A DNA stretch of 64,000 nucleotides, from the NCBI RefSeq assembly GCF_003991155.1, contig NZ_CP031293.1, one strand, 5' to 3'. The translations under genes and the position numbers were made by a program. The notes under the pieces were generated by a model. The model was not told where the DNA came from and searched no databases. It was given only the letters and a program-made list of their open reading frames with translations. This DNA is from Escherichia coli (GTDB lineage: Bacteria > Pseudomonadota > Gammaproteobacteria > Enterobacterales > Enterobacteriaceae). This document shows positions 154-17,704 of this stretch, one piece after another (position 1 is the stretch's first letter; each line of letters opens with the position of its first letter).

Positions 154-359
154 TACGTAATCCTTCATTTATTTTAAGGACAGAAAATTACGGAGATATT
201 GCAAATGCAATACCCGATAGTTCGCTAAAATATTTGCAAGAGACATCATTTATAAAAATGAATGATAGTCTTTACAAAAGCAGAAATAAGATATGCCAAA
301 CAGACAGGTTAGATGGAATTCAATCTATTTGACAAAAATGATGGTTACAGAAAGGCAAG

Positions 360-434
360 TTAAGGGTGGTGTTCAACAATCTTGTTGTCGATATTGAACC
401 ATTTTGAGGTCACACATATATGTAAGATATTCAT
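360..434 (-). CDS. tnaC: tna operon leader peptide (24 aa, MNILHICVTSKWFNIDNKIVEHHP)
   Basis: Own translation of minus strand; W12, D16 and terminal P24 are conserved; positions 21 and 23 differ from K-12 TnaC as recalled (DHRP); ~206 nt spacer to tnaA start. Confidence 0.8.
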   Translation of the reverse strand: MNILHICVTSKWFNIDNKIVEHHP

Positions 435-525: not shown

Positions 526-1488
526 GTTGGTTATTAGTGATATAAAATGACAATGATTTTGCATCATTAAAAATATTTATCAATTACGTTGATAAAACTA
601 TTACATGCAGGTGTTAATAAATGGTGATAAAAATGGTAAATGACAGAGATGTAATGTTGAAGATGATTCCTTGATGAGAATTATGTTCTACGGAAGTGGT
701 ACATCAACTTTTTGGGAAGGTATATAAATAAAGCAGAATAGATCACGTTTGGCACACATCTGATTACTCATGTAATTAACTAATTTCAGCACGGTTTTTC
801 TTGCTTTTTTAGAGTAATTAATATACCGATGCCCAAGATGAATATCATAAGAAATACTATCAAAATAATGTCTGGAATGAAATATTATACAGATGAATGA
901 TTGCGGTTACCTGATGATTTAAATAATGAATATGTGATTTGCTTGTTATATAAGAAAATTTAAATATTGCCGATAGTGTATTGAATAGTGCCTGCTTAAC
1001 GGGGTCCCCTGTTAAGTTGTCAAGCATGTTTATGAGACTGCTGGGGGATAAAAAGTCCCGGCACACATCCTGCTAACAGGACATCACTGCACTGTCTGAG
1101 CGATAAACGCTTGGTTGTGTCGTATTCCACGGCTCATTTTACGTGTGTAGTACGTTTGGGTATTGGTTTTCGGAGAGCAGCAAAGGCTGACAGGAACAAT
1201 GCCCGTTTGATGAGTTTATTGTCTCGTCTTGGCGGATGTTCGCCACATATTGATGAACCGTAACGCTAGGTAAAAAGGGGAAGCAAGACCCCACTGTTTC
1301 ACTTCAAAAGCCTTGCTTATGTAGAGTGATGAGATGGAGTGCCAGAAGGCCTGGAGTGGCAGAATAACGACTGCGGCATGCGTACCGGGAGCGATCATGG
1401 TTTGTTGTACCAGTGCCTGAGTGATGTCTGCCGCGGGGCGTTTTTCAAGATGAGGCTCAAGCTTGCAGGGCTGCCAGCTTCTTTTCAC

Positions 1489-2883
1489 TTAGCGAAGCCA
1501 GTTTTTCCGGCCTACGGCTACTCCCCGTAAGGCGTTCTCTGCGATGTTGTTGTCGATTTCCACCCAGCCATTGCTGCAGTACACGTTCAGGCCATCCCAC
1601 TGTTTCAGCAGGTATGCGAACGCTTTTGCCGTATCTGAGTGACGCGACAGTGTTTTCATCTGTTGCTGTATCCAGTCATACAGTGACTGCATCAGTGGCG
1701 CGGCTCTGGCTTTTCTTGCCGCCAGACGCTGTTCTGCTGAACAGCCCCGGACCTCTGCCTCGATGGCATACAGTTCACCGATACGCTGCAGGGCTTCCGT
1801 GGTGATGTAGGTGGGCGCTCTTGCATGCACATCGTGGATTTTTCTCCGGGCATGAGCCATACACGCGGCTTCCGTTATTCTGCCGGATTCGTATAACGCC
1901 CGGTAACCACCGTAAGCATCGGCCTGAAGCACACCGCTGTAACCGGCCAGGTGATTTTGTGGATGGATACCTTTCCGGTCCGGACTGTACGCGAACCAGA
2001 CCGCCGGGGGCATCTGTGAACCGGCGTTACGGTCATCACGGACGTAGACCCACAGCCGGGCTGTCCGGGTTTTACCGCTGCCCGGCTCCTGGACCGGGAC
2101 GGGGATATCATCAGCATGGACTTTACCGGGCATCAGCACATACTGGCGCAGGACGTCATACAGCGGCTCCAGCAGTTCAGCAACAGCACCTGTCCAGCGC
2201 CCCAGTGTGGCACGGCTCAGCTCCACTCCCTGACGACGGTATATTTCTGACTGGCGGTATAACGGCAGATGGTCTGCATATTTCCCGGTGACAACATGGG
2301 CCAGAAGCCCCGCTCCGGCATAACTGCGTGCAATGGGTTTTGAAGGTACTGGTGCCTGCACGATATGGTCGCACCGGCAACAGGCCTGTTTCGGACGTTG
2401 TGTTTCGATAACCTTAAAGGCGCTGCTGATAAGCTCCAGTTGCTCTGACACATCACATCCCAGAGAACTGAGTTCACCACCACAGGCAGGACAGCATTCC
2501 TCTTCCGGCCGGATAACCCGGGTTTCACGGGGAAGTGAGGCCGGTAACGGTTTACGGGCTGAAGACTGGCGCAGGGCGGATGGCAGTACCGGGTCATATT
2601 GCTCACCCAGCGTTTCCGCCATTTCTTCCTGAAGTGCGCTGATTCGCTCCTGTGCTTCCTGTATCTGCCGTTCGGTTTTTGCACGAAGTTTTTCTGAGCT
2701 TTTACCGAACTGCATACGTTGCAGTTTCGCAACCAGCGCCTTCAGCCGGTTGATTTCGGAAGCATAAGCCGCCACCCGCTGTGAGAGCAGGCGGTTGTAT
2801 TCAGCCATCTGGCGGATGGTGTCCTGTTGCGTCTGCAACAGTGCCCGCAGGCGGGCGTTCTCATGAGCAAGTGAGGTGTCCAT
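1489..2883 (-). CDS. IS66-family transposase TnpC (orfC), C-terminus apparently disrupted
   Basis: 464-aa ORF with zinc-finger-like CxxC pairs and DDE-region conservation; ends at KNWLR where family members continue; a 90-aa ORF (1216..1488) lies immediately downstream in the same orientation. Confidence 0.75.
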
Positions 2884-2902
2884 ATCCTCACTTTACAACG
2901 GG

Positions 2903-3250
2903 TTATATGCGGATTCCAGCGCGTTCCGTTCGTTTCGGGTGCTTCCAGTTGATACCTTCAAGAAGCATGGATAACTGAGCCGGAGTAAGGTGCACCTTGC
3001 CGTCACGGGTGACTGGCCAGACGAAGCGGCCCCGCTCCAGGCGTTTGGTGAAGAGGCACAGTCCGTCACTGTCAGCCCACAACACTTTTATCTGGTCACC
3101 CCGGCGTCCGCGGAAGATGAACAGGTGTCCGGAGAACGGGTCATCCTTCAGGACGTTCTGAACTTTTGATGCCAGGCCGTTAAAGCCATTTCGCATATCG
3201 GTGATACCTGCAACCAGCCAGATACGCGAACCTGCAGGGAGAGATATCAT
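2903..3250 (-). CDS. IS66-family TnpB (orfB)
   Basis: 115-aa ORF MISLPAGSRIWLVAGITDMRNGFNGLA..., the characteristic IS66 Orf2 N-terminus. Confidence 0.8.
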   Translation of the reverse strand: MISLPAGSRIWLVAGITDMRNGFNGLASKVQNVLKDDPFSGHLFIFRGRRGDQIKVLWADSDGLCLFTKRLERGRFVWPVTRDGKVHLTPAQLSMLLEGINWKHPKRTERAGIRI

Positions 3251-3927
3251 CAGTGGCTGCTCCCTTTTATTTCGCGGATAAGTGTCTGTAATAACGCCGG
3301 CGTCAGTTTACCTTTAAGCCTGAGAGTTCCGGCCGGCAGAACCAGCTCACAACACAGACTGTCGGACGGTGTATTTATCTGCTCTGGTTCCTGTGCGGGG
3401 GCCGGGATTTTATTATCCGGCTCCGGCGTTAACGTCACGGGAAGCAGTGCCGGCATATTTTTTCCGGAAGGCAGCAGGCCACCTTTCCGGTATTGATGGC
3501 GCCAGTTGAAGAGCAGGTTATCGTTGATTCCGTTTTCCCGGGCGATCTGCGCCACACAGGCTCCGGGCTGCAGTGACTGCTCCACTAAGGCGATTTTAAA
3601 CTCATAAGGGAAGTTGGGCCGCCGGGGACGTTTTTTTACCACGGGGGCTTCGGATATAACGGTGCTTTCAGGACGTACGACTGGTACCGTGGAAAATTGT
3701 CCGTAAAGGCAGGCATCAAGTTCCTGCTCCGACATGCCTGCGGGCAAAGGCCACGAAAGGCCAGCTCTCCGAAAGCGCACGAACATACTACAAACTGTTG
3801 ATTTTGGTACACCCAGGCGACGCCCGGCCACAACCCGGGGTAAATGTTCTTCAAAGTGAAGACGTAAAGCTTCAGTGATCCAGGTCCGGTGTTTCATACG
3901 ATAGTGTCCATTAAAAATGATGGACAT
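3250..3927 (-). CDS. chimeric ORF: IS21-family IstA-like N-terminus (HTH + LSWPLPAGMSEQELDACLY) fused to IS66-family TnpA (orfA)
   Basis: C-terminal ~130 aa (PNFPYEFKIALVEQSLQPGACVAQIARENGINDNLLFNWR) is IS66 TnpA-like; N-terminal ~95 aa resembles IS21 IstA N-termini. Confidence 0.55.
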   Translation of the reverse strand: MSIIFNGHYRMKHRTWITEALRLHFEEHLPRVVAGRRLGVPKSTVCSMFVRFRRAGLSWPLPAGMSEQELDACLYGQFSTVPVVRPESTVISEAPVVKKRPRRPNFPYEFKIALVEQSLQPGACVAQIARENGINDNLLFNWRHQYRKGGLLPSGKNMPALLPVTLTPEPDNKIPAPAQEPEQINTPSDSLCCELVLPAGTLRLKGKLTPALLQTLIREIKGSSH

Positions 3928-3976
3928 TATTTTTGTAGAGCCGGAGGAAACAGACCAGACGGTTTAAATGAGCCGG

Positions 3977-4180
3977 TTACTTTCCCTCGCGCCATTGTTG
4001 TCGCCATTTGAACAACAGATTGGCGTTAATGCCATTTTCAAGAGCAAGTTTTGAGATGGATATCCCGGGTTCACAGGAGGCAGCAACGAGCTGCTGTTTA
4101 AATTCGGGAGGATAATTAGGGCAGCCTTTTCGCCTGCCGGGAGTCACATTTTTCTGCATATCTGACACTTTGGTTCCCAC
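3977..4180 (-). pseudogene. second IS66-family tnpA-like fragment (67 aa)
   Basis: PNYPPEFKQQLVAASCEPGISISKLALENGINANLLFKWRQQW is paralogous to the TnpA segment at 3250..3650; far shorter than intact TnpA. Confidence 0.5.
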
Positions 4181-4836
4181 TACTTATTTGGTGGACACCA
4201 CTTTGTCTAATTCGTCAGATTCTGACCAGACGGTTCAGGCTGTACGCTTACGTAGAACGCAGGTTCGTTTCGGTTCAGGATCGCGACAGTGCCCCCTCAC
4301 CTTCAGCTACAGTTCCCATAGAATTTTTTTCAGGTCAGTAATACTGGCTGCTGTTGTTGTCAGGATTTGATAGCTCATAAGCCCCGTTTGTCTTATTGGT
4401 ATAAGAGCATCTTTAAAAGCACTCTTAAAAGTACTCGTGTTGAAAAAACAGCCAGAACAAATGAAGTATGGCTCTTTCCGACAACTCTCTAAAACGTTCT
4501 GTAACACATTCTGAGCGTTTTTACGTCAGTTAGGCACGCCGCTCAGTGCTTCTGAGCGGCCTTGTTGCCGCGATCTGTTGTCCTGATCTTGATAAATGAA
4601 CATCAATACGGCGTTCCGTCAGTGTTTACAATAACTCCCAATTCATAACTACTTTTAACACATTTGTGTGATTCCCCCTTTCTGCTGAAAATATAGTTAT
4701 TTCCAATATAATCAATGAGTTTTATTAATTTGTTGATTTTTTTTTTCATGTTTTTTTTGTGATAATTATCATTTGAATGTGAATGTTGCTCCTGAATAAT
4801 GTTTATCAAAGTTGTCTGGTACGAGGGAGAAATTTC

Positions 4837-6099
4837 ATGGCTATCATCATGGGGATCATCGCTGACGATTTTACTGGCGCGACTGATATTGCCTGCTTTA
4901 TGGCAGAGAATGGTTTTCGGGTTGCGCTGTTGCCCGGTTTGCATGCACTCACGCAGTCATGGGATGAAGAGGCTGATGCAATAGTCATTTCACTGAAAAG
5001 TCGTTCATTACCCGCGAATCAGGCAATTGAGCAGACTTTGCTAAGTTATCATTGGTTGCGTGACTGTGCGGGGGCGCAGCAGATCTATTTCAAATATTGC
5101 TCAACATTTGATTCCACTGCAGATGGCAATATCGGCCCGGTCAGCGATGCACTGATGAAGGTGATGGGCACACCTTATGTCGTGCATTGTCCCGCTTTGC
5201 CCCAAAATGGCCGAACAGTTATCCATGGACATCTTTTTGTTAACGGTATACCCCTTAACGAATCCGGCATGGAAAAACACCCCCTGAATCCAATGACCGA
5301 CACTAACCTGCTGCGCGTACTGGCTGCACAAACCCCCAATAGAGTTGGTAATCTTGATCTGAGGACAGTTCAACAGGGCGAGCAAGCCATCACCACCGCA
5401 CTTTCCCGTTGTCAGGCTGAAGGGAAGCAACACATTATTGTCGATACATTAACTGAAAATGATCTGCAAAGCCTGGCAAATGTATTACGCCATACACCTT
5501 TACTGGCTGGGGGATCCGGACTGGGTGGGGCGTTAGCCGCTTTTTTACAGCAACATCCTTATACGCCAGCCTCCGCGTTTCCCAATCCTGCCAGAACGGT
5601 AATCTTCTCCGGAAGTTGTTCAGTGATGAGTAATCGACAGGTGGATGCTTATAAATCGCATGCAGCCACGCAGTTGCTTGATGTTGCTCGTTGTCTGGAC
5701 GATGGCAATAGATATATCGATCAATTACTTGAATGGACAATTGCGCACATCAATGATCCGCTTGCTCCGTTGATTTACGCCACTCAACCTGCGGATGTGT
5801 TGAAATCTATACAGCAAACCTGGGGTGAACACGCGGCAAGTAAAGCCATTGAACAAACTTTTGCGCAGCTTAGCCAAAAATTGCAGGTCGCGGGTGTCAA
5901 CACTTTTATTGTTGCTGGGGGAGAAACTTCCGGGACTGTAGTGGAAGCGCTAAATGTGAAACGGCTAACAGTGGGGAGCACTATTACGCCGGGCGTACCA
6001 TGGGTTTTTTCGGCAGAACCGCCCCTGGCACTGGCGCTGAAATCTGGCAATTTTGGGGAGCCTGATTTTTTCATTAAGGCTCAGGAGCATGGATTATGA
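4837..6099 (+). CDS. four-carbon acid-sugar kinase family protein (DUF1537; OtnK/YgbK-like 3-oxo-tetronate kinase homolog)
   Basis: N-terminal IADDFTGATD motif and overall length (420 aa) typical of DUF1537 kinases; RBS GAGGGAG upstream; stop overlaps next start. Confidence 0.75.
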   Translation: MAIIMGIIADDFTGATDIACFMAENGFRVALLPGLHALTQSWDEEADAIVISLKSRSLPANQAIEQTLLSYHWLRDCAGAQQIYFKYCSTFDSTADGNIGPVSDALMKVMGTPYVVHCPALPQNGRTVIHGHLFVNGIPLNESGMEKHPLNPMTDTNLLRVLAAQTPNRVGNLDLRTVQQGEQAITTALSRCQAEGKQHIIVDTLTENDLQSLANVLRHTPLLAGGSGLGGALAAFLQQHPYTPASAFPNPARTVIFSGSCSVMSNRQVDAYKSHAATQLLDVARCLDDGNRYIDQLLEWTIAHINDPLAPLIYATQPADVLKSIQQTWGEHAASKAIEQTFAQLSQKLQVAGVNTFIVAGGETSGTVVEALNVKRLTVGSTITPGVPWVFSAEPPLALALKSGNFGEPDFFIKAQEHGL

Positions 6100-6734
6100 G
6101 TGAACTCATCGAACAAAAATTACGTGAACAACTCGTCTATTACGGGCGTTCGCTCTTTATGCGCGGTTTCAGTAGTGGCGGTTCCGGCAATATCAGCGTC
6201 AAACTGGCTGAAGACCGTTTTTTGGTCACGCCGACCAATTCCTGTCTTGGCGAGTTAGATAGTGAAAGAGTGAGTCTTATCGATATTCATGGCAACCATA
6301 TCAGTGGTGATAAGCCGTCAAAAGAGGTGCCTATGCATCTTGCCTGGTATCGACATCGTCCGAACTGTGGAGCGGTGGTACATCTGCACTCGCCATGGCT
6401 GACGGCACTTTCGTGTTTACCTTGCACAACACCAGAGAATTGCTTACCGCCGCTCACTCCCTATTACGTGATGCGTGTGGGGAAATTACCATTATTGCCT
6501 TATTTCAAACCAGGACATGAGGATATCGCTACGGCATTAAGCCATATAGCGGCCGACTCTACCGCAGCTCTGTTGGCGAATCATGGCCCCGTTGTCAGCG
6601 GAAGAACATTGCGCGAAGCGGTATTTAATGCCGAAGAGCTGGAAGACAGTGCCCGTATCTGGCTGACCTTAAAACCACTTGGCTATGTTCCTCTTTCGGC
6701 AAAAGACATCGCTGAACTGGAACAGGCCAGATGA
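6096..6734 (+). CDS. class II aldolase/adducin-family protein (OtnC/YgbL-like decarboxylase/aldolase)
   Basis: 212 aa, SGGSGNISVK and HLHSPW metal-binding-type motifs; ATGA overlap with upstream kinase gene. Confidence 0.75.
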   Translation: MSELIEQKLREQLVYYGRSLFMRGFSSGGSGNISVKLAEDRFLVTPTNSCLGELDSERVSLIDIHGNHISGDKPSKEVPMHLAWYRHRPNCGAVVHLHSPWLTALSCLPCTTPENCLPPLTPYYVMRVGKLPLLPYFKPGHEDIATALSHIAADSTAALLANHGPVVSGRTLREAVFNAEELEDSARIWLTLKPLGYVPLSAKDIAELEQAR

Positions 6735-6749
6735 TAACGAGGTGAGAGG

Positions 6750-7556
6750 ATGATACCCGAGCAAAGGCGAGACTTTATTTACCGCTATGTCCATGAGAAA
6801 AACGTTGCTTCATTTAATGAACTGGCTGAGTTGATGAGCGTTTCGCATATGACAGTGCGTCGTGATATTCAATTACTGGAAGAAGAAGGCAAAGTTATTA
6901 CCATAAATGGCGGCGTTAAGCTGAACAACCAACTTAAATTGGAGTTACCGTGGCGAGAAAAAGCTGAACTGCATCATGATATTAAGCGTGACATGGGGCA
7001 GCTTGCTGCGATGTTGATCGAACCCGGGCAGACACTCTATTTAGATGCCGGAACCTCATTATTTGAGGTCGCAAAAGCAATCGTTGCCAGCCAGTGCTTT
7101 AATCTCACTATCGTGACAAATGATTTCTCTATCAGCCATTACCTGATGGATATGCAACATATCACGCTTTACCACACCGGGGGATTGGTAGATCAACGCA
7201 ATCGTTCTTGTTTGGGGAAAAGTGCAGCTGATTTTCTGCGCACGATTAATATCGATGTTGCATTTCTTAGCTCCTCTTCATGGGATACACAAAGAGGAAT
7301 GTCAACACCAAATGAAGGTAAAGCTACAGTGAAAGAGGCGGCGCTTACGGTCTCCCGTCGCCGCGTATTAGTGTGTGATAGCAGTAAATTCGGTAAATAC
7401 GGAATGTTCCATATATGCGAGCTCAGCCAATTGACCGATATCATTTCAGATAACCAGTTGCCTTTATCGGCGCAGGAAAGCATTACACAGCTGGGCGTGA
7501 AATTACATCTGGTTAATAGCCGGGAGGGAACGCAGCATGTTGAAGCTGGCGGCTAA
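6750..7556 (+). CDS. DeoR-family transcriptional regulator
   Basis: N-terminal HTH (FNELAELMSVSHMTVRRDIQLLEEEGKV) and C-terminal sugar-phosphate-binding-like domain. Confidence 0.8.
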   Translation: MIPEQRRDFIYRYVHEKNVASFNELAELMSVSHMTVRRDIQLLEEEGKVITINGGVKLNNQLKLELPWREKAELHHDIKRDMGQLAAMLIEPGQTLYLDAGTSLFEVAKAIVASQCFNLTIVTNDFSISHYLMDMQHITLYHTGGLVDQRNRSCLGKSAADFLRTINIDVAFLSSSSWDTQRGMSTPNEGKATVKEAALTVSRRRVLVCDSSKFGKYGMFHICELSQLTDIISDNQLPLSAQESITQLGVKLHLVNSREGTQHVEAGG

Positions 7557-8313
7557 TCTCGACTGGTTGTTCACAGAACTGCCGATGTCTGCACGGTTTC
7601 ATGCAGCCAGACGGGAGGGGTTTCGTGCTGTTGAAGGAATGTTTTTCTGTCAGCATTCTCTGGATATGCTGAGAATTGCGCAGCAAGAATCGGGAATGAG
7701 CGTGGTGCTGATGAATGCTCCGGCAGGTGACTGGCTACGAGGTGAGCGTGGCCTGGCTGCACTTCCTGGCCGCGATGATGAATACCTGAACAGTTTGCTC
7801 ATTGCCCGCCGATATGCAGGGACGCTGGGATGCAGGCAGGTTCATGTTATGGCGGGCCTTCGGGATCACTCTGTGACAGAAGATGAACAACTGGAGTTAC
7901 TGGTTAATCGCTTGTGCATAGCCTGCGATGTGCTGGCGGAAAAAGATATTACAGTATTAATCGAACCCCTGAATTCTGAAGATATGCCTGGCTATATTAT
8001 TAATAGCCTTCCTCGAGCAAAAGATATTATCCGGCGGGTTTCTCACCAAAATATTGGTTTGCAGTTTGATATTTATCATTGCCAGAAAATTCATGGTAAT
8101 GTCACCCAAAATATAGATAAATATTTATCAATAGTTAAGCATTTTCAGATTGCCTCTGTGCCTGGTCGCCACGAACCAGGTTCTGGTGAGCTAAATGATA
8201 CGTGGATATTAAATTTTATTAATCAAAAAAACTTCCAGGGCTGGATTGGCTGTGAGTATAAACCTTCCACACTGACAACCGAGTCATTACGCTGGATGAA
8301 ACCATATTTATAA
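7537..8313 (+). CDS. Hyi/OtnI-like TIM-barrel isomerase (hydroxypyruvate / 2-oxo-tetronate isomerase family)
   Basis: 258 aa; strong similarity to E. coli Hyi as recalled (AGDW..GERG, LIEPLN, GW(I/V)GCEYKP, LRWM.PY). Confidence 0.8.
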   Translation: MLKLAANLDWLFTELPMSARFHAARREGFRAVEGMFFCQHSLDMLRIAQQESGMSVVLMNAPAGDWLRGERGLAALPGRDDEYLNSLLIARRYAGTLGCRQVHVMAGLRDHSVTEDEQLELLVNRLCIACDVLAEKDITVLIEPLNSEDMPGYIINSLPRAKDIIRRVSHQNIGLQFDIYHCQKIHGNVTQNIDKYLSIVKHFQIASVPGRHEPGSGELNDTWILNFINQKNFQGWIGCEYKPSTLTTESLRWMKPYL

Positions 8314-8334
8314 AATCTTTTTCTGGAGGAAAAT

Positions 8335-9147
8335 ATGTCGGATACCGTCATAATTTCGTTGGCACCTGTGGCCGCAGACTGCACCAGAGTCATACCCGAA
8401 GAATTGGCGCAGGAAATTTTGGCTTGCGTTGAATATGGAGCAGCAATTGTTCATTTACACGTTCGTGATAAGCAAGGCAAGTTAACGCCAGATACAACCG
8501 ATTTCCAGTCAACCATTGATCTCGTCAGACATCAATCAGACTTAATTATTCAGGCTTCTACGGGCGGAGTCTCTGCCATGTCAATAGCCGAGCGTTGCGC
8601 GCCTCTGGACTGCCCTGGCGTTGAAATGGCGTCGCTGAATGTAGGGTCGGTGAACCTTGGTGATGCCGTCTACGCTAATCCAACACCGGATGTCGAATAT
8701 TGTTCACAGCAAATTACCGCGCGTAGTATTGTTCCTGAATTTGAAGTGTTTGAAATTGGAATGGTTAATAATATTTTAACCCTCAATGAAAAGATAAAAT
8801 TCAGAAACCCCATGTTATTTAATATTGTACTTGGTCATAGAGGAAGTTCTCCGGCGACAATAGATGCATTAATTGCGATGCGCAGTATGATCCCGCGAGA
8901 TGCATTATGGGGTATTACTCACTTTGGCAGAAAGAATTTTGATGTTATTGCTGCTGCGGTAGCTATGGGAGCTAGCGAGGTCAGAATTGGTTTTGAAGAT
9001 AGTTATTATTTAAGTGCAGAGGAGATGGCGGAACAAAATTATCAGCAAGTTAAAAAACTCGCCAGACTTATTCGTAGTATGGATAAACAAGTGGCCTCAC
9101 CGGAAATTGCCCGACGGATATTAAATATCCCAATCCGGCAGCAATGA
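8335..9147 (+). CDS. DUF849 / BKACE-family beta-keto acid cleavage enzyme
   Basis: 270 aa with HLHVRD motif characteristic of 3-keto-5-aminohexanoate cleavage enzyme family; good RBS (GGAGGAAAA). Confidence 0.7.
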   Translation: MSDTVIISLAPVAADCTRVIPEELAQEILACVEYGAAIVHLHVRDKQGKLTPDTTDFQSTIDLVRHQSDLIIQASTGGVSAMSIAERCAPLDCPGVEMASLNVGSVNLGDAVYANPTPDVEYCSQQITARSIVPEFEVFEIGMVNNILTLNEKIKFRNPMLFNIVLGHRGSSPATIDALIAMRSMIPRDALWGITHFGRKNFDVIAAAVAMGASEVRIGFEDSYYLSAEEMAEQNYQQVKKLARLIRSMDKQVASPEIARRILNIPIRQQ

Positions 9148-9168
9148 CGACAGACAGGACATTTTACT

Positions 9169-10479
9169 ATGACTATAACAACCCTAATACAAAAAGCAGG
9201 ACTTACAATCTGTATAGCTGGCGGTGTACTCGCGGCAACAGGCGGGTTGATGCAATCCGCTGTGCTCTGGCAACCTGGATTGGTGATGCTTACTGCAGGC
9301 TTTGCCCTCGGTGCTGGTTACTGGCCGATACTTCGAAGTTATCAATTCACGTTATGGATTATCGCAGGTTTCGTGGCTGCGATGACCTGGTCGATGGATT
9401 TGATTGTCTGGGGCGGGTTTAACATTACTCACAAATGGATCGTGTTTTTAGTCATTCAGGCAACGATGTTCAGTATGGGTACCAAACTGACGATTCAGGA
9501 TTTTATCGATGTTGCCAAAATGCCATGGGCGGTGTTTATTGGCACCTTCTGCCACTTTGTGATTATGCCGTTGCTGGGGCTAACCATTACGCTGTTATTT
9601 GATTTTCCGCCAGAAGTTGCGGTGGGGATCCTGCTCATAGGTGCCTGCCCTAGCGGTTTATCATCAACTGTTATGGTTTATATCGCTAACGCGAACCTCG
9701 CGCTGGCGGTATCAATCGCCGCAGTTTCTACGCTGGCAGCAACGGTTATGACGCCGTTGTGGGTAAATTTGCTGGCTGGCTCCATGATTGACATCCAACT
9801 TACCGCAATGGTTATGGACGTGGTGAAAATTGTCCTTATACCAATTGGTGCAGCAATTTTGCATGACTACCTGAAAACGTACGCTGGAGTTCGAGGTCGA
9901 CGAACCGTGCAGCTTCTCGCCGGGATCTGCGCCCTGTGGCTAATTTACATGAGCTCTGGTGGTTGGGACTATCTCTTTGACAACGCCAGTGCAGACGTAC
10001 AAATGTATGCCGTGGTACTGAACTTTGTCACGGGTGGCATTGTATGGGCGTTGTTCTATAACTGGCTGTACAGTCGCGTGGAAGGCATTCAAAAGATTAT
10101 GCCAACCATCTCTATGATTGGGATCATCTTCTTTACCACCACCGCTGCGGCAGCTGGTCGTGATAACCTGTTGCAGGTTGGTTTCCTGCTTTGTTTCGCC
10201 ATGTTGTTGCATAACCTTGGCGGTTTCCTGATTGGCTATCTGATGAGTCGCTGGATATTCCGCATGGACGAACAATCGTCCCGTACCGTAGCCTTTGAAG
10301 TGGGATTGCAAAACGGAGGTATGGCGTCAGGTCTGGCAGCGGCAATGGGCAAACTGGCTACAGTTGGCCTTGCCTCTGCAGTCATGACACCTCTCGGCAA
10401 TGTGAGTGGTTCGCTGTTGGCAAACTACTGGCGCAAAAAAGACGCTCGTAAAGCACAGACTGCGAATAAAGACAAATAG
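9169..10479 (+). CDS. BASS-family (bile acid:sodium symporter / SBF-like) transporter with N-terminal extension
   Basis: Highly hydrophobic 436-aa ORF, GACPSGLSSTVMVYIANANLALAVS signature region; start codon uncertain. Confidence 0.65.
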   Translation: MTITTLIQKAGLTICIAGGVLAATGGLMQSAVLWQPGLVMLTAGFALGAGYWPILRSYQFTLWIIAGFVAAMTWSMDLIVWGGFNITHKWIVFLVIQATMFSMGTKLTIQDFIDVAKMPWAVFIGTFCHFVIMPLLGLTITLLFDFPPEVAVGILLIGACPSGLSSTVMVYIANANLALAVSIAAVSTLAATVMTPLWVNLLAGSMIDIQLTAMVMDVVKIVLIPIGAAILHDYLKTYAGVRGRRTVQLLAGICALWLIYMSSGGWDYLFDNASADVQMYAVVLNFVTGGIVWALFYNWLYSRVEGIQKIMPTISMIGIIFFTTTAAAAGRDNLLQVGFLLCFAMLLHNLGGFLIGYLMSRWIFRMDEQSSRTVAFEVGLQNGGMASGLAAAMGKLATVGLASAVMTPLGNVSGSLLANYWRKKDARKAQTANKDK

Positions 10480-10514
10480 TCTGCCTGTTGTAACCTTTCA
10501 AAAGGAAACTCAAT

Positions 10515-10934
10515 ATGACGACATTGACCCTGAAACAAGCATTGCTTGCAGTAGAGTATGCGCTTGATCTTGCAGTGCAACAATATGCTGGCCGTCCTTT
10601 AAGTGTGGCAGTATGCGATGTTAATGGTGAATTGCTGAGCTTTGCCCGCATGGATAGAGCCAAACTGTTAACTATTGAATTAACGCAGCGTAAAGCACGA
10701 ACCAGTAGTCGTCTGGGCTGTACGACAGCAGCATTCTTACAGCGTCTACAAAAAGAGCAACTTGATATCAGCTATTTTGGAGATCCCCGGTTTACCGCAT
10801 TACCAGGAGGGATCCCTATTCTGGTTAAAGGAAAATGCATTGGTGCTGTTGCTGTGGGGGGATTATCCGCACGAGAAGATCATGATGCGGCACAGGCTGT
10901 CGCAGATAAACTGCTTGAGGAGATGACCAAATGA
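10515..10934 (+). CDS. GlcG/DUF336 (HbpS-like) protein
   Basis: 139 aa, typical DUF336 length and GAVAVGG glycine-rich motif. Confidence 0.6.
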   Translation: MTTLTLKQALLAVEYALDLAVQQYAGRPLSVAVCDVNGELLSFARMDRAKLLTIELTQRKARTSSRLGCTTAAFLQRLQKEQLDISYFGDPRFTALPGGIPILVKGKCIGAVAVGGLSAREDHDAAQAVADKLLEEMTK

Positions 10935-11581
10935 AAAAAATAGCCATGCTTCACACCAGTTCAGCCACGCTTGCGGTGATGCAACAACTGATAGGCGATA
11001 TCATGCCTGAGGCTGAAGTGATGCATCTGGTTGAGGAGTCTATGATTAAGCAGGTGATGAAAGCGGGCGGTGTTACGCCAGATATCGCCGCACGGATCGC
11101 TGATTACATACGGATCGCTGAAAAAGCCGACTGCGATATTTTCATTACCGCTTGTTCATCAATTGGTACTGCTGTCGAACAGTGTCAATTTATGACTTCA
11201 GTACAACTGGCACGGATTGACTGTGCGATGGTGGATGAAGCAATCAACAAAGGGGAACACATTGCTGTGCTGGCAACGGTGGCCACAACGCTGAAACCGA
11301 CGCTTGATTTTGTCCGGCGAAAAGTTCAGGAAAGTGGAAAACAGCGGATTATTACACCTGTTTTAATGGAAGAAGCCTTCCATGCGTTATTGAATGGTGA
11401 TATGGGAACGCATGACCGCATTGTGAGTGAAGGATTACAAAAGGCCTTTGGGCAGGCAGATGTTATTATGTTAGCGCAGGCATCGATGGCACGGGTGCTG
11501 CAAAATATGCCTGAGCCTCCGGTTCCGGTATTAACATCGCCAGAAAGCGGTATTCGCTGGTTGAAAACATTCGCGAGTTAA
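10931..11581 (+). CDS. AroM-like / Asp-Glu-hydantoin racemase superfamily protein
   Basis: 216 aa; architecture resembles E. coli AroM as recalled; ATGA overlap with upstream gene; family assignment tentative. Confidence 0.45.
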   Translation: MKKIAMLHTSSATLAVMQQLIGDIMPEAEVMHLVEESMIKQVMKAGGVTPDIAARIADYIRIAEKADCDIFITACSSIGTAVEQCQFMTSVQLARIDCAMVDEAINKGEHIAVLATVATTLKPTLDFVRRKVQESGKQRIITPVLMEEAFHALLNGDMGTHDRIVSEGLQKAFGQADVIMLAQASMARVLQNMPEPPVPVLTSPESGIRWLKTFAS

Positions 11582-11684
11582 GTCAGGTATAGTTTCTATA
11601 TTAAAGACGTTTACACATAATGGTGTACAGGCCCATTCAGAAACGGAACTGGGAATTTATTAACGGATAATCCGGAAACGTATT

Positions 11685-11716
11685 AAATGGCAGAAGGTAA
11701 CTACTTTCTGCCATTT
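11685..11716 (+). terminator. perfect 11-bp inverted repeat (AAATGGCAGAA / TTCTGCCATTT, 10-nt loop) ~105 nt downstream of the operon
   Basis: Seen directly; no clear T-tract follows, so terminator function is uncertain. Confidence 0.35.
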
Positions 11717-13983: not shown

Positions 13984-14756
13984 ATGAAAATACTCATTGC
14001 AGGGGCAACCGGAAGTATTGGTCTTCATGTCGTGAATACCGCTATTGAAATGGGTCATCAGCCCGTGGCGCTGGTCAGAAATAAACGCAAAGTAAAATCT
14101 CTTCCTCGTGGAACAGATGTTTTTTACGGCGATGTTTCAATGCCGGAAACACTCACCGAATTGCCGAAAGATATTGATGCCATCATCTTCACTCTCGGTT
14201 CTGATGGCCAGGGGCGTATTGGTGCCAGAGCGATCGATTACGGAGGAGTGCGTAATATTTTGCGAATATTCAGGGATACACCTGTTCGTATCAGCTAATG
14301 ACCACGATTGGCGTGACTGAGCGGCTCAGCACTTGGAATCAACGCACTGAGGTTCATGACAGGAAAAGACGTGCCGAGCGTCTGGTCAGGGCCAGCGGTC
14401 ATCCCTATATTATCGTCCGGCCCGGCTGGTTTGATTACAACAATGATGATGAACACAGGATCGTTATGCTTCAGGGGGATCGTCGCCATGCAGGAACACC
14501 GGAAGATGGTGTGATATCCCGGGAGCAAATCGCCCAGGTTCTGGTCAGTGCCCTGACCAACGACGAGGCAAAAAATAAAACGTTCGAGCTGGTGGCTGAA
14601 CGAGGTGAAGCACCACAGGATCTTACCCCACTGTTTGCAGAACTGCAGACTGATGATGCACAAAAAAATGATGGGGTTCTGGACATAGACAATATGCAGC
14701 TGAGAGAAGAACCGGAGTGCATTATTAACGAGCTGAACCTGTATTCAAAAAATTAA
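13984..14756 (+). pseudogene. NAD(P)H-binding NmrA/atypical-SDR-family oxidoreductase split by a frameshift at ~14296
   Basis: First ORF (104 aa) starts with Rossmann motif MKILIAGATGSIG; second ORF (152 aa) continues the family in another frame; junction AGCTAATGACC. Confidence 0.6.
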
Positions 14757-15149: not shown

Positions 15150-15205
15150 ATCATTAGTATCCTGAGCAGGATGTGTCTTAACCCTCTTATAGCGAGCGTC
15201 GATTT

Positions 15206-15541
15206 ATGTTTAGAACAGAAGACATCATCGATGAGATAACCCAATGGATTGATTCAAATTTACATAAGCCGCTGAAGATAGAGGATGTTGCTGCGCGGGC
15301 AGGATACTCGAGGTGGCATCTTCAGCGGATTTTTGTGCAGGTGAGAGAAATTAGCCTTGGGAAGTACATAAGAGATACGAAACTTAGACTTGCAGCAAAA
15401 GATCTTATCGCGACTAATGAGCCAGTGATGGTTATCGCCTTTAAATATGGATTCGATTCACAACAAACTTTTACTCGGATTTTCTTTAAAAAATATAAAT
15501 TGCCACCATTGAAATATAGGGTAATGACTCCAACTTATTGA
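15206..15541 (+). CDS. MarA/SoxS/Rob-type small AraC-family regulator, 3' end replaced by IS1 sequence
   Basis: Two HTH regions (SRWHLQRIF... / ...QQTFTRIF) like SoxS; IS1 left end begins at 15520 inside the ORF so the last ~7 codons and the stop are IS1-derived. Confidence 0.7.
15511..15519. repeat. IS1 target-site duplication, left copy (GAAATATAG)
   Basis: Identical 9-mer directly flanks both IS1 ends. Confidence 0.8.
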
Positions 15542-16038
15542 TAGTGTTTTATGTTCAGATAATGCCCGATGACTTTGTCATGCAGCTCCACCGATTTTGA
15601 AAACGACAGCGACTTCCGTCCCAGCCGTGCCAGGTGCTGCCTCAGATTCAGGTTATGCCGCTCAATTCGCTGCGTATATCGCTTGCTGATTACGTGCAGC
15701 TTTCCCTTCAGGCGGGATTCATACAGCGGCCAGCCATCCGTCATCCATATCACCACGTCAAAGGGTGACAGCAGGCTCATAAGACGCCCCAGCGTCGCCA
15801 TAGTGCGTTCACCGAATACGTGCGCAACAACCGTCTTCCGGAGCCTGTCATACGCGTAAAACAGCCAGCGCTGGCGCGATTTAGCCCCGACGTATCCCCA
15901 CTGTTCGTCCATTTCCGCGCAGACGATGACGTCACTGCCCGGCTGTATGCGCGAGGTTACCGACTGCGGCCTGAGTTTTTTAAATGGCGGAAAATCGTGT
16001 TGAGGCCAACGCCCATAATGCGGGCGGTTGCCCGGCAT
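15535..16038 (-). CDS. insB: IS1 InsB (expressed as InsAB' by frameshift)
   Basis: 167-aa ORF matching IS1 InsB. Confidence 0.85.
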
Positions 16039-16232
16039 CCAACGCCATTCATGGCCATATCAATGATTTTCTGGTGCGTACCGGGTTGAGAAGCGGTGTA
16101 AGTGAACTGCAGTTGCCATGTTTTACGGCAATGAGAGCAGAGATAGCGCTGATGTCCGGCGGTGCTTTTGCCGTTACGCACCACTCCGTCAGTAGCTGAA
16201 CAGGAGGGACAGCTGATAGAAACAGAAGCCAC
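15957..16232 (-). CDS. insA: IS1 InsA
   Basis: [42 protein letters not shown]... Confidence 0.9.
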
Positions 16233-16287
16233 TGGAGCACCTCAAAAACACCATCATACACTAAATCAGTAAGTTGGCAGCATCACC

Positions 16288-16296
16288 GAAATATAG
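16288..16296. repeat. IS1 target-site duplication, right copy (GAAATATAG)
   Basis: Identical 9-mer directly flanks both IS1 ends. Confidence 0.8.
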
Positions 16297-16522
16297 AAAC
16301 GCGGAAAGGAGAAAAAAACTTCACCAGCCCATGTCTTAAGTTCTGTCAGTATGGCTACAGCCTGTTTGCTGAGTGGCACAAGGTGTGGTGTTCGAATCTT
16401 GGTTCCCCAATGAGAGTTCAGGCGGTGTGGGCAAATAAAAAAGAAAACATAAATAAAACCATCCGACCGTTGGTGGGGCTGGATGGTTATTCATTATTTC
16501 TATGTCACTGAACTTTCATTCA

Positions 16523-17704
16523 TCAGATCTGCTCAGAAAGTGAATCAATGTAGTCAGCATACCACTGCATCATTTCACGGCGACCATCCAGATACTGGGC
16601 ATGATTATAGGTACCTCTGATAGCGTTTTTATCCATATGAGCTAACTGCATTTCAATCCAGGCAGAATTAAAGCCCTGTTCGTGCAGAATTGTACTCATG
16701 GTGTGTCTGAAACCGTGCCCTGTGAGTCTTCCCTTATATCCTAGTAATTCAATGACTTGGTTTATGCTTTCCTTACTAATTGGTTTGCGAGGATCGTTCC
16801 TACCGATAAAGACCAGAGGATGATGTTTTGAGATTGGTTCAAGTTGCTTAAATAGCGCAATGACCTGCTCAGAGAGCGGCACAATATGAGGTCGCTTCAT
16901 CTTCATTACTTCTGCCGGGATCTCCCATAATTTTGTCTCAAAATCGATATCCTCCCAGCGTGCGAAACGCAATTCTTGAGTTCGTACACCAGTTAGCATA
17001 ATGATTTGAGTGGCTGTCTTAGTGATAATACTTCCGGTATAACCCGCCAGATCATTGAGGAAGTGGGGAAGTTCATTAGCAGTAAGAAAGGGAAAATGTA
17101 CTTTTTTCGGTGTAGCTAAAGCACTGGCAAGATCGGGAGCAGGGTTGTAGTTAGCCCGACCAGTAACAATTGCATAGCGGAACACCTCTCCACAGCGCTG
17201 GCGGACCTTACGCATTTTCTCCAGAGCTCCACGTTTTTCCATTTTACGCAATGCTTCCAGTAACTCCATTGGTTTGATTTCAGCAATAGGGCGTTTGCCA
17301 ATATAGGGAAAAATATCTTTTTCAAAGGTATCAATGATTTCATCACGATAGCGTAATGACCACCGATCGGCTTTTGACTGATGCCATTCTCGAGCAACGG
17401 CCTCAAATGTGTTTTTCAAACTCATTTGCAGCGCGATTTTTTCTTCTTTTTTTGTCTCACCCGGATCGCATCCTGCAGCGAGGATTTTCCTAGCTTCACT
17501 GCGTTTTTCGCGAGCGTCGGCTAGAGTTACATCGGGGTATACGCCAATAGAAAGCATCTTTTCTTTGCCAGCAAAGCGGTACTTCATACGCCAATATTTA
17601 GAACCATTAGTGTTAATGAGTAGATACATACCGCCACCATCAGACAGCTTATAGGGCTTTTCTTTTGGTTTTGCGGTTTTCACTTTAATATCAGTTAACG
17701 CCAT
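16523..17704 (-). CDS. P4-type (CP4-like) tyrosine integrase
   Basis: 393 aa, C-terminal HGFRHT...Y catalytic signature; lies beside the 3' end of selC in the same orientation. Confidence 0.85.
   Translation of the reverse strand: MALTDIKVKTAKPKEKPYKLSDGGGMYLLINTNGSKYWRMKYRFAGKEKMLSIGVYPDVTLADAREKRSEARKILAAGCDPGETKKEEKIALQMSLKNTFEAVAREWHQSKADRWSLRYRDEIIDTFEKDIFPYIGKRPIAEIKPMELLEALRKMEKRGALEKMRKVRQRCGEVFRYAIVTGRANYNPAPDLASALATPKKVHFPFLTANELPHFLNDLAGYTGSIITKTATQIIMLTGVRTQELRFARWEDIDFETKLWEIPAEVMKMKRPHIVPLSEQVIALFKQLEPISKHHPLVFIGRNDPRKPISKESINQVIELLGYKGRLTGHGFRHTMSTILHEQGFNSAWIEMQLAHMDKNAIRGTYNHAQYLDGRREMMQWYADYIDSLSEQI

Follow-up and report, generated by a model that had tools for sequence, protein, structure and literature searches.

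A BKACE enzyme kept with a DUF1537 kinase and a racemase-like protein in a mobile Escherichia coli cluster: a possible pathway for L-aceric acid

Why does a gene for a BKACE (DUF849) enzyme lie among genes for an isomerase, a kinase and a decarboxylase of four-carbon acid sugars? The question is raised by a 64,000-nucleotide stretch of Escherichia coli DNA from contig NZ_CP031293.1, hereafter referred to as the window. The initial annotation read the arrangement as a branch point, at which 3-oxo-tetronate made by the Hyi/OtnI-type isomerase would have two alternative fates: phosphorylation and decarboxylation, or cleavage with acetyl-CoA. The pairing of genes has stood and the catalytic residues are intact, but the two fates of 3-oxo-tetronate are not supported. 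We tentatively propose, giving it rather less than an even chance, that the BKACE is an obligatory in-line enzyme of a mobile catabolic module, free of dehydrogenases, that imports and degrades an acidic rare sugar, most likely L-aceric acid.

Organization of the gene cluster

The cluster and its surroundings comprise the following features (window coordinates and strand).

1489–3927 (−): IS66-family element (ISCro1-like transposase, TnpB, TnpA) to the left of the cluster, from the annotation of the identical region in NZ_CP029747
4783–6099, RefSeq start 4837 (+): OtnK-like kinase of four-carbon acid sugars (DUF1537); 510 bits on NCBIfam OxoTetrKin (cut-off 350)
6096–6734 (+): class II aldolase-fold 3-oxo-tetronate 4-phosphate decarboxylase, OtnC-like; NCBIfam OxoTetrPhDc 289 bits (cut-off 250)
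6750–7556 (+): DeoR/GlpR-family regulator, YgbI-like; NCBIfam YgbI 261 bits, under the cut-off of 400
7537–8313 (+): Hyi/OtnI-like TIM-barrel isomerase; OtnI 282 bits (cut-off 325), Hyi 275 bits (cut-off 353)
8335–9147 (+): BKACE (DUF849) family zinc TIM-barrel enzyme, 270 residues; matches to Pfam PF05853 and to Kce (PDB 2Y7D)
9169–10479 (+): PanS-like transporter of the BASS (bile acid:sodium symporter) family; sub-cut-off matches to NCBIfam PanS (172 bits) and TIGR00841 (171 bits)
10515–10934 (+): HbpS/GlcG-like (PF03928) small protein; weak NCBIfam matches, Pfam HbpS-like in orthologous loci
10931–11581 (+): divergent member of PF01177 (Asp/Glu racemase fold) in which a single Cys is conserved; Pfam Asp_Glu_race in orthologs
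16523–17704 (−): tyrosine integrase of the island; 393-residue open reading frame, equal in length to the annotated tyrosine recombinase beside tRNA-Sec
18000–18094 (−): tRNA-Sec (selC), attachment site of the island; ARAGORN and annotation

The eight genes of the cluster, from OtnK through OtnC, DeoR, OtnI-like, BKACE, BASS and HbpS-like to the racemase-like PF01177 gene, all lie on the + strand and either overlap or are separated by at most 35 bp. Promoters and terminators are no commoner here than in shuffled sequence, so the reading as a single operon rests on spacing and strand. The isomerase, kinase and decarboxylase are as the initial annotation had described them. The kinase, annotated otnK, shares 48% identity with the OtnK of the canonical E. 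coli cluster and scores 134 bits on the OiaK model (cut-off 700); the decarboxylase is 52% identical to YgbL, the regulator 44% identical to YgbI, and the isomerase, at 39% identity to YgbM, is the most diverged Otn paralog of the cluster. The PF01177 protein returned no match in a sequence search against the PDB and was placed by fold search alone: its AF2 model (pLDDT 94) has the racemase fold, with a TM score of about 0.78 at 12–18% identity. C75 and S185 are invariant in this protein, and one of the two catalytic Cys is lost. The BASS transporter presumably imports the acid substrate; in other taxa, Succinatimonas and Clostridium among them, a TRAP DctPQM system stands in its place, the solute-binding protein of which has only generic DctP/SiaP relatives in the PDB (at most 140 bits) that give no clue to its ligand.

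The cluster is located on the selC island, which is present in 21 of 5,426 complete E. coli genomes; strain 2016C-3878 is among the carriers of the cluster. Mosaic in structure, the region is rich in IS fragments and pseudogenes, as would be expected if the BKACE gene and the three genes downstream of it were unrelated island cargo that came to lie beside an otn-like operon. The identical eight-gene order, however, occurs in Klebsiella, Yersinia, Budvicia, Citrobacter, Atlantibacter and Edaphovirga, with different flanking genes in each; the adjacency is thus not due to chance. Since these occurrences, in at least six other enterobacterial genera, are at non-island sites, and since the pairing recurs across phyla (see below), fortuitous adjacency is refuted by the conservation data, and we give it virtually no credence.

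The BKACE protein

The open reading frame at 8335–9147 corresponds to the RefSeq CDS WP_061092938.1, named '3-keto-5-aminohexanoate cleavage protein', and its match to Pfam BKACE (E = 3e-69; residues 20–264 against positions 24–273 of the 274 in the model) bears out the original assignment to this family. Kce (2Y7D) is its top sequence match in the PDB (E = 4.7e-39) and its nearest relative among solved and curated BKACEs. The zinc site, formed by an HxH motif on strand 1 and the Glu of the C-terminal FED motif, is intact, as the initial annotation had suggested be checked against Kce: H40, H42 and E221 align with the ligands of Kce and BKACE15 and are unchanged in all 20 subfamily members aligned. 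The Kce residue numbers used here reportedly come from Bellinzoni et al. (2011). E171, the catalytic base of BKACE15, is matched by E137, and R254 of that enzyme by R217. All seven residues (H40, H42, S75, E137, R217, E221 and D222) are invariant across the subfamily. Members of the G7 group of the family are inactive and miss a catalytic residue (NetSyn preprint); the window protein keeps the catalytic Glu and Arg.

The automated names of these genes are a different matter. The window protein falls under all four curated BKACE equivalog cut-offs in NCBIfam: 243 bits for Kce (NF052387; cut-off 382), 146 for the 3-oxoadipate model (350), 162 for the 3,5-dioxohexanoate model (430) and 180 for KAL-CLE (725). 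Ten members of its subfamily score 180–229 bits on NF052387. The two loci of lowest identity, both from Intestinimonas, were considered as true Kce controls and rejected, as they lie on short contigs and reach only some 180 bits with the Kce model. The lysine-fermentation neighbourhood (aminomutases, Kdd, Kal) is absent around the window gene, the neighbours being OtnK, OtnC, OtnI, the transporter, the HbpS-like gene and the PF01177 gene. In addition, the polar residues Y113, H168 and H196 are invariant in the subfamily, where five solved BKACEs have hydrophobic or small residues. It is almost certain that the genes are misnamed as '3-keto-5-aminohexanoate cleavage protein' and 'aspartate/glutamate racemase'.

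Conservation of the BKACE–kinase pairing

We collected 57 related loci from several phyla, each with at least 5 kb of flank on both sides. The survey of DUF849 and DUF1537 co-occurrence proposed earlier yields a strongly conserved pairing: the kinase is present in 53 of the 57 loci (93%), the PF01177 gene in 54 and both in 51. The HbpS-like gene is found in 9 of 54 full-flank loci. In the literature searched, no publication on the BKACE–DUF1537 pairing was found, in keeping with the initial annotation, which knew of no such description. One locus (L025) has a tartronate-semialdehyde-reductase-like gene in the place of the kinase, which the scheme proposed below does not predict.

In Firmicutes, PF01177, kinase and BKACE are constant, and OtnI, OtnC, a cupin and class II FBP-aldolase-like genes are optional; the DUF1537 kinase of these loci has diverged far, scoring 43 bits on DtnK. 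Firmicutes loci that keep the trio have neither OtnI nor OtnC in the fetched flanks, which indicates that the BKACE is independent of an OtnI-type isomerase. Because the kinase and PF01177 gene stay with the BKACE even where OtnI and OtnC are not nearby, the BKACE appears to be a fixed partner of the kinase and not a side exit. The conserved neighbour families of the related loci include no dehydrogenase, thioesterase, CoA-transferase or acetoacetate gene and no PdxA-family gene (ApnO oxidoisomerase), and there is no LtnD/DenD 2-dehydrogenase in the window cluster or in orthologous clusters. Genes for CoA or acetoacetate steps are likewise absent from the window cluster.

Association with GH127 and pectin RG-II

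The Firmicutes trio is located in glycosidase loci, adjoining a cytoplasmic GH127 gene. Across the 57 loci, GH127 is present in 24 and a carboxylate importer (TRAP or BASS) likewise in 24; one or the other occurs in 46 and both together in just 2. The window cluster follows the second pattern, with a BASS importer and no GH127 or other glycosidase. In six loci GH127 is fused to the DUF1537 kinase immediately upstream of the BKACE gene; Lachnospiraceae bacterium M18-1 has one such fusion. The trio and the GH127::kinase fusions define a widespread uncharacterized pathway, whatever its substrate.

GH127 enzymes are mostly beta-L-arabinofuranosidases. The top PDB match of the GH127 proteins considered here is 5MQO, 'Glycoside hydrolase BT_1003' (552 bits, the next at 349), to which they are 38% identical, compared with 31–32% for the next solved relatives; an identity at this level falls short of proving a shared specificity. 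BT1003 is the aceric-acid hydrolase of rhamnogalacturonan II (RG-II; PMC5698469, PMC10850190). Neighbouring GH42, GH78 and GH140-like genes fit the Gal-AceA-Rha-Api core of RG-II chain B; for the GH78 and GH140-like proteins the PDB gives generic matches, to a rhamnosidase from Streptomyces and to an unnamed glycoside hydrolase from Bacteroides, so that these neighbours are compatible with RG-II but not diagnostic of it. The AceA-Rha-Api trisaccharide is secreted by Bacteroides thetaiotaomicron (bioRxiv 10.64898/2026.03.13.711244). We found no paper, in the literature searched, that describes what becomes of aceric acid once RG-II has been broken down, or the pathway proposed here.

A possible route for L-aceric acid

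L-aceric acid, 3-C-carboxy-5-deoxy-L-xylose, is known only from pectin RG-II. In the proposed route, every chemical step of which we infer, the free acid would enter through the BASS transporter and undergo a redox-neutral aldose-to-ketose isomerization, catalysed by the one-Cys PF01177 protein and/or the Hyi/OtnI-like isomerase, to give HOCH2-CO-C(OH)(COO−)-CH(OH)CH3. This keto form would be a 2-substituted 3-oxo-tetronate, that is, a beta-keto acid with a quaternary C2, and would be bound by the BKACE zinc. The usual BKACE substrates lose a proton to form a zinc-stabilized C2 enolate; as C2 is quaternary here, the enolate would arise instead by retro-aldol loss of acetaldehyde, and the products, formed without CoA, would be acetaldehyde and 3-oxo- or 2-oxo-tetronate. 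The OtnI-like protein, OtnK and OtnC would then take the oxo-tetronate to dihydroxyacetone phosphate (DHAP) and CO2 by the steps of the established tetronate route. BKACE and PF01177 would thereby stand in for LtnD/DenD as the source of oxo-tetronate, and the BKACE would provide no second exit.

The assignment of L-aceric acid draws on gene context, and the E. coli cluster would be tied to this substrate through orthology, at 50–54% identity. Of the rare sugars of RG-II that we compared (aceric acid, apiose/apionate, Dha and Kdo), aceric acid appears to fit best, as it carries a carboxylate, is released by a GH127 enzyme and would reach a beta-keto acid without oxidation. We rated apionate, Dha and Kdo as less likely. 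Dha and Kdo, as 2-keto-3-deoxy acids, do not belong to the beta-keto acids; apionate depends on an oxidoreductase, the NAD-dependent ApnO; and GH127 is not known to release any of the three. 3-oxo-isoapionate is a known substrate of DUF1537 enzymes (PMC12994016), and the keto form of aceric acid would be its methyl homologue.

Several observations sit less well with the route. The window protein fully keeps the catalytic set of canonical CoA-dependent BKACE chemistry, and we know of no precedent for a CoA-independent retro-aldol reaction in any BKACE. The Firmicutes trio loci have no OtnC equivalent in the fetched flanks, and the PF01177, HbpS-like and Firmicutes cupin and class II FBP-aldolase-like genes can be fitted into the scheme only loosely. 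The complete assignment, in which DUF1537, BKACE and one-Cys PF01177 proteins form the missing L-aceric acid pathway and the BKACE is a CoA-independent zinc aldolase acting at a quaternary alpha carbon, is the boldest form of our proposal and somewhat unlikely.

Alternative explanations

The branch point first suggested for this locus would have 3-oxo-tetronate made by OtnI react with acetyl-CoA to form glycolyl-CoA and 2-hydroxyacetoacetate, in competition with the kinase. 3-oxo-tetronate is indeed a beta-keto acid, the genes are co-operonic and the BKACE residues are in place, but the cluster has no LtnD or DenD to make the 2-oxo-tetronate that feeds OtnI, and the canonical E. coli threonate cluster (ygbI-ltnD-otnK-ygbL-ygbM-ygbN) has LtnD and no BKACE. 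3-oxo-tetronate bears a 2-hydroxyl group, whereas the BKACE substrates described so far have an unsubstituted methylene at C2. A CoA-dependent side branch would need a thioesterase, CoA-transferase or acetoacetate gene; as genes for glycolyl-CoA or acetoacetate-type products are not conserved, such a branch is unsupported. The persistence of the trio in Firmicutes, where OtnI and OtnC were not found in the fetched flanks, also speaks against it, and a competing drain fails to account for co-occurrence in 93% of the loci. We regard the branch point as very improbable; more probably, the BKACE works on the same line as the kinase, at a step before it.

A contender that we rate as rather unlikely is a canonical acetyl-CoA-dependent BKACE (beta-keto acid and acetyl-CoA giving acyl-CoA and acetoacetate) in a pathway for another imported acid sugar, such as a derivative of Dha, Kdo or apionate or a host or plant C5–C7 acid, with the CoA ester and acetoacetate left to housekeeping enzymes. 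The conservation of all residues for the usual chemistry and the proximity to genuine Kce favour it, and there is genetic precedent in deoxyribonate catabolism, in which the CoA and acetoacetate steps are likewise encoded outside the cluster (10.1101/205583). Known pathways of this kind, however, form the 3-keto group by an adjacent dehydrogenase (an SDR for deoxyribonate), and none is conserved here; the GH127 association, including the fusions, points to a GH127 product, which Dha and Kdo are not known to be; and ApnO for apionate is absent. Alternatively, aceric acid could be the substrate with another role or order of the enzymes, a reading that we consider quite improbable: the DUF1537 kinase might act first, the BKACE following as an aldolase, decarboxylase or isomerase of the phosphorylated beta-keto acid, or the BKACE might be the aldose-ketose isomerase and the PF01177 protein an epimerase of 3-oxo-tetronate. 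As the trio alone is constant in Firmicutes, it must there cover both isomerization and C-C or C-CO2 cleavage; the divergent Firmicutes kinase may differ from OtnK in substrate, and the loss of one catalytic Cys in the PF01177 protein fits a one-base isomerase or epimerase. Against this, E. coli OtnK and OtnC exceed the equivalog cut-offs for 3-oxo-tetronate chemistry, which favours cleavage to a C4 acid before phosphorylation, at least in Proteobacteria.

Implications

Should the assignment to L-aceric acid hold, three candidate enzymes, one regulator and two transporter types would be named that are testable directly in E. coli. The BKACE family would extend to polyhydroxylated or branched substrates, possibly with CoA-independent C-C cleavage, and zinc aldolase activity without CoA would be a new reaction type for it. 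The tetronate (OtnK/OtnC) route would gain a dehydrogenase-free entry. The selC island would let a rare E. coli lineage scavenge aceric acid freed by primary gut pectin degraders, as several Klebsiella, Yersinia and Citrobacter relatives would do likewise, and the cluster would be a marker for cross-feeding on RG-II fragments among Bacteroides, Lachnospiraceae and Enterobacterales.

Comparison with known systems

The DUF849 fold of cis-epoxysuccinate hydrolase (PDB 5ZMU/5ZMY) is homologous to that of the window BKACE (E about 2e-12). This hydrolase depends on zinc and is not known to use CoA, which suggests that CoA-independent chemistry on small hydroxy or dicarboxylic acids lies within reach of the fold; it is, however, a distant relative and hydrolyses an epoxide. 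With Kce, the founding member of the family, the window protein shares the TIM barrel, the HxH and Glu zinc site, the catalytic Glu, Arg and Asp and the STGG motif. It differs in having polar Y113, H168 and H196 for hydrophobic pocket-lining residues, and in having a DUF1537 kinase and a PF01177 protein as partners instead of a lysine-fermentation context. The 2-deoxy-D-ribonate BKACE PS417_07250 (Price et al., 10.1101/205583) also belongs to a sugar-acid pathway with its CoA-ester and acetoacetate steps outside the cluster, but there the adjacent SDR dehydrogenase makes the beta-keto acid, the C2 methylene of which is free, and this BKACE has no kinase or PF01177 partner.

Among pathways, the closest is the four-step degradation of L-threonate and D-erythronate by LtnD or DenD, OtnI, OtnK and OtnC (PMC12994016). 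The window cluster has OtnK, OtnC, an OtnI-like isomerase and a YgbI-like DeoR repressor in common with it, its Otn-type proteins being 39–52% identical to the canonical ygb proteins, and its end products are probably the same, DHAP and CO2. Unlike the ygb cluster, it lacks LtnD/DenD and the GntP permease and adds the BKACE, BASS, HbpS-like and PF01177 genes. The oxidative D-apionate pathway (ApnO, OiaK, OiaC/OiaX), which degrades the RG-II sugar apiose, also has a plant cell-wall source, and in it a DUF1537 kinase phosphorylates 3-oxo-isoapionate, a 3-oxo-tetronate that is branched and 2-substituted, with decarboxylation as the next step; the window cluster has no ApnO, OiaX, lactonase or any dehydrogenase, and BKACE and PF01177 are foreign to the apionate pathway. 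Finally, BT1003, from the RG-II polysaccharide utilization locus of B. thetaiotaomicron, is the solved enzyme most similar to the Firmicutes GH127 proteins that adjoin or are fused with the kinase; it is a glycosidase with no counterpart in the E. coli cluster, which has a carboxylate importer in its place.

BKACE protein

The 270-aa ORF at window 8335-9147 (+) matches the Pfam BKACE family (PF05853, E 3e-69) across almost the entire model. The initial annotation had placed a BKACE there, and the ORF, the Pfam match and the neighbouring genes bear it out. The closest solved relative in a PDB sequence search is Kce, the founding enzyme (2Y7D, E 4.7e-39). By alignment to Kce and BKACE15 (8RIO), H40 and H42 (HxH motif) and E221 are the zinc ligands, and D222 and the STGG motif also align with both; E137 matches the catalytic base E171 of BKACE15, of which the E171L mutant is inactive (PMC11961710), and R217 matches R254. 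All of these residues are invariant in 20 diverse subfamily members, so the zinc-binding residues singled out for checking in the initial annotation are indeed conserved. Because the catalytic residues all align and are invariant, the protein lies outside the catalytically defective "G7" group described within the BKACE family (NetSyn preprint).

The protein belongs to the BKACE family and to no functionally defined BKACE subfamily. It reaches the cut-off of none of four NCBIfam models (Kce, 243 bits versus 382; KAL-CLE, 180 versus 725; dioxohexanoate, 162 versus 430; 3-oxoadipate, 146 versus 350), and ten subfamily relatives likewise score below the cut-offs of the curated BKACE models. Three polar residues, Y113, H168 and H196, are invariant or nearly so across the subfamily, at positions where five solved BKACEs carry Phe/Val, Val/Leu/Ile and Gly/Ala/Ser, respectively; we infer from sequence that they line the substrate pocket.

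Gene cluster and genomic setting

BKACE is the fifth of eight genes on the forward strand at window 4783-11581, separated by gaps of at most 35 bp or overlapping.

Genes of the cluster in order, with bit scores versus model cut-offs
Gene 1: DUF1537 kinase, OtnK (NCBIfam, 510 versus 350)
Gene 2: class II aldolase-fold decarboxylase, OtnC (NCBIfam, 289 versus 250)
Gene 3: YgbI-like DeoR regulator (NCBIfam, 261 versus 400)
Gene 4: Hyi/OtnI-like isomerase (OtnI, 282 versus 325; Hyi, 275 versus 353)
Gene 5: BKACE (below the cut-off of all four curated BKACE models)
Gene 6: BASS/PanS-like transporter (about 172 versus 400)
Gene 7: HbpS/GlcG-like protein, 139 aa (weak NCBIfam matches only)
Gene 8: PF01177 (Asp/Glu racemase family) protein, 216 aa (no NCBIfam match)

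No dehydrogenase is present in the cluster. An SDR oxidoreductase, which the annotation of the identical E. coli region marks as frameshifted, appears as adjacent ORFs of 104 and 152 aa at window 13984-14756. It lies 2.4 kb past the cluster, beyond RepA and TnpB pseudogene fragments, and is not found beside orthologous clusters; for these reasons it was rejected as the missing dehydrogenase.

The PF01177 protein (window 10931-11581) is predicted to adopt the racemase fold (pLDDT 94; TM about 0.78 in a fold search). In an alignment of PF01177 proteins, C75 (CSS motif) is the sole invariant cysteine, and the position of the second catalytic cysteine is an invariant serine, Ser185 (QxSM). With one catalytic cysteine retained and the second replaced by serine, a classical two-base racemase is unlikely, and RefSeq's label 'aspartate/glutamate racemase family protein' probably misleads. 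These features suggest a one-base isomerase or epimerase that would act somewhere in the upper pathway.

Of 5426 complete E. coli genomes, 21 carry the cluster region at 100% identity, on the chromosome in every case. It lies on a mosaic island bounded by IS66-family elements and an integrase adjoining tRNA-Sec. One of the 21 carriers, strain CDE6306 (NZ_CP191552.1), has an IS5-like ISKpn26 inserted within the cluster, splitting the 4600-11700 match in two; its kinase bears just the name 'four-carbon acid sugar kinase family protein'. At its left end, the window (1-434 and 1084-4160; positions transferred from NZ_CP029747, where the identical region is annotated, with an offset of 4401) holds the tnaA start and tnaC leader (reverse strand), then IS110 and IS66 (ISCro1) elements and a gene for a small transposase. 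The integrase ORF lies at window 16523-17704, versus 15746-16927 expected by offset from strain 2016C-3878; being 777 bp farther from the cluster, it indicates an extra island segment downstream, at approximately 15200-16500.

Conservation of the neighbourhood

The same eight-gene order is found in Klebsiella, Yersinia frederiksenii, Budvicia, Citrobacter, Atlantibacter and Edaphovirga, with different flanking genes each time. A subfamily-profile scan of one genome per species yielded 80 loci (44-96% identity; individual loci carry L numbers below). Neighbouring ORFs were called and clustered de novo, HMMs built from the clusters were used for searching, and counts were restricted to loci that were non-redundant and had 5 kb or more of sequence on each side of BKACE, 57 in all. 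The DUF1537 kinase lies near BKACE in 53/57 loci, which answers the co-occurrence survey proposed in the initial annotation; the PF01177 protein does so in 54/57, and both in 51/57. OtnC and OtnI are each near BKACE in 10/57, and it is only in Proteobacteria that they join the trio. The conserved neighbours include no dehydrogenase, thioesterase, CoA-transferase or acetoacetate-handling family. What stays constant is therefore the set of kinase, BKACE and PF01177 protein. This constancy is difficult to square with BKACE as a dispensable branch off the OtnI product, and so with the two alternative fates suggested in the initial annotation.

No OtnC equivalent was found in the fetched flanks of the Firmicutes trio loci. 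Several Firmicutes/Spirochaete loci (L024, L029 and L044, from Pelosinus and related genomes; L041, L037 and L048) carry beside BKACE a class II ketose-bisphosphate aldolase-like gene (cbbA subfamily, 253 bits versus a cut-off of 216) and/or a 117-aa cupin. Such genes may take over the functions of OtnC and OtnI, and their presence in some Firmicutes loci suggests a different step order there. In one Clostridia MAG, a 2-hydroxy-3-oxopropionate (tartronate semialdehyde) reductase-like gene (L025:10821-11705; 406 bits versus 397) follows BKACE in the slot normally held by the kinase, which hints at a reductive form of the pathway.

GH127 and a candidate substrate

A carboxylate importer (TRAP DctPQM or BASS) is encoded in 24/57 loci, and a GH127 without signal peptide, alongside oligosaccharide ABC transporters and other glycosidases, in 24/57. 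One or the other is present in 46/57 and both in only 2/57, a near-exclusivity that would be expected for the breakdown of an acidic monosaccharide, which would be either taken up free or set free inside the cell by GH127. The nearest PDB entry to this GH127 is 5MQO, titled "Glycoside hydrolase BT_1003" (552 bits versus 349 for the next match); in Foldseek the predicted structure matches 5MQO with E 3e-49 and 38% identity, which is not proof of aceric-acid specificity, and characterised beta-L-arabinofuranosidases at 31-32% identity. In the RG-II system of B. thetaiotaomicron, BT1003 acts as the aceric-acid hydrolase; among characterised GH127 enzymes it alone is not an arabinofuranosidase (PMC5698469, PMC10850190).

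In six Lachnospiraceae-type loci, GH127 and the kinase form a single polypeptide of 1105-1132 aa directly upstream of BKACE, with the BT1003-like GH127 at residues 1-652 and DUF1537 from about residue 655.

GH127::DUF1537 fusions
L054:6662-9979 (+)
L057:4783-8151 (+)
L059:6614-9958 (+)
L060:6602-9958 (+)
L075:6617-9958 (+)
L080:6184-9582 (+)

The accompanying glycosidases match the RG-II chain-B core, Gal-AceA-Rha-Api: near the trio are a GH42-type beta-galactosidase (8/57 loci, assigned by reading of a representative sequence), a GH78 rhamnosidase (13/57) and a GH140/apiosidase-like gene (10/57). According to a 2026 preprint (10.64898/2026.03.13.711244), 10-50% of the AceA-Rha-Api trisaccharide made by B. 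thetaiotaomicron is secreted, which would be a source for cross-feeders. The E. coli cluster is tied to GH127 only via orthologs at 50-54% identity.

A family of 574-591 aa proteins lies beside the trio in Paenibacillus and Anaerocolumna-type loci without GH127 (L042:10820-12574, L009:6044-7768, L020:5633-7357, L026:5949-7724, L051:10806-12563 and L079:10885-12639). It has no significant match in Pfam, NCBIfam or PDB and only weak similarity to GH127 (hhalign probability 63%, beta-sandwich region; Pfam GH127 E 0.98), and may be a glycosidase replacing GH127, to which it would be very remotely related.

Proposed route and its rival

By a redox-neutral aldose-ketose shift, aceric acid (CHO-CHOH-C(OH)(COOH)-CHOH-CH3) would become HOCH2-CO-C(OH)(COO-)-CH(OH)CH3, a beta-keto acid and the methyl homologue of 3-oxo-isoapionate, itself a known phosphorylation substrate of a DUF1537 kinase (PMC12994016). 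The alpha carbon of this keto isomer is quaternary, and the canonical first step of BKACE, C2 deprotonation, is therefore impossible; the same zinc-stabilised enolate could form on BKACE by retro-aldol loss of acetaldehyde. Its protonation would give 3-oxo-tetronate or 2-oxo-tetronate, which the OtnI-like isomerase, OtnK and OtnC would turn into DHAP and CO2, an established route (PMC12994016).

This inferred scheme would account for five observations: the dehydrogenase is absent, CoA-related genes are absent too, OtnK and OtnC score at equivalog level, the isomerase has diverged more strongly, and BKACE and the kinase form a fixed pair. Chemistry without CoA has a precedent in the DUF849 fold: cis-epoxysuccinate hydrolase, a homologue recovered in the PDB sequence search with the window BKACE, works without it. 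Ordinary acetyl-CoA-dependent cleavage of another beta-keto acid is a serious rival, since the complete canonical catalytic set is retained; the deoxyribonate pathway, moreover, uses a sugar-acid BKACE with the CoA steps encoded elsewhere (10.1101/205583). The replacement of the kinase by a reductase-like gene in the Clostridia MAG does not fit the aceric-acid scheme.

Comparison with known pathways

In the literature searched, of which coverage is incomplete so that absence is not proof, we found no paper on BKACE and DUF1537 together, one review naming DUF849 and DUF1537 separately, and no pathway paper on aceric acid catabolism; the pairing, of which the initial annotation knew no description, appears undescribed there. 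If the aceric-acid assignment holds, the cluster offers a set of directly testable E. coli genes for how bacteria consume this sugar acid. Known enzyme families are joined here in a pathway not described before, and the reaction of BKACE in it may be of a type new to the family. The canonical E. coli tetronate cluster (ygbI, and ltnD-otnK-ygbL-ygbM-ygbN) has the L-threonate dehydrogenase LtnD and neither a BKACE nor a PF01177 gene, and its proteins are distant paralogs of those of the island (OtnK 48%, YgbL 52%, YgbI 44% and YgbM 39% identity). The island cluster resembles the four-step tetronate pathway but lacks the dehydrogenase that defines it, and with the apionate pathway it shares only the logic.
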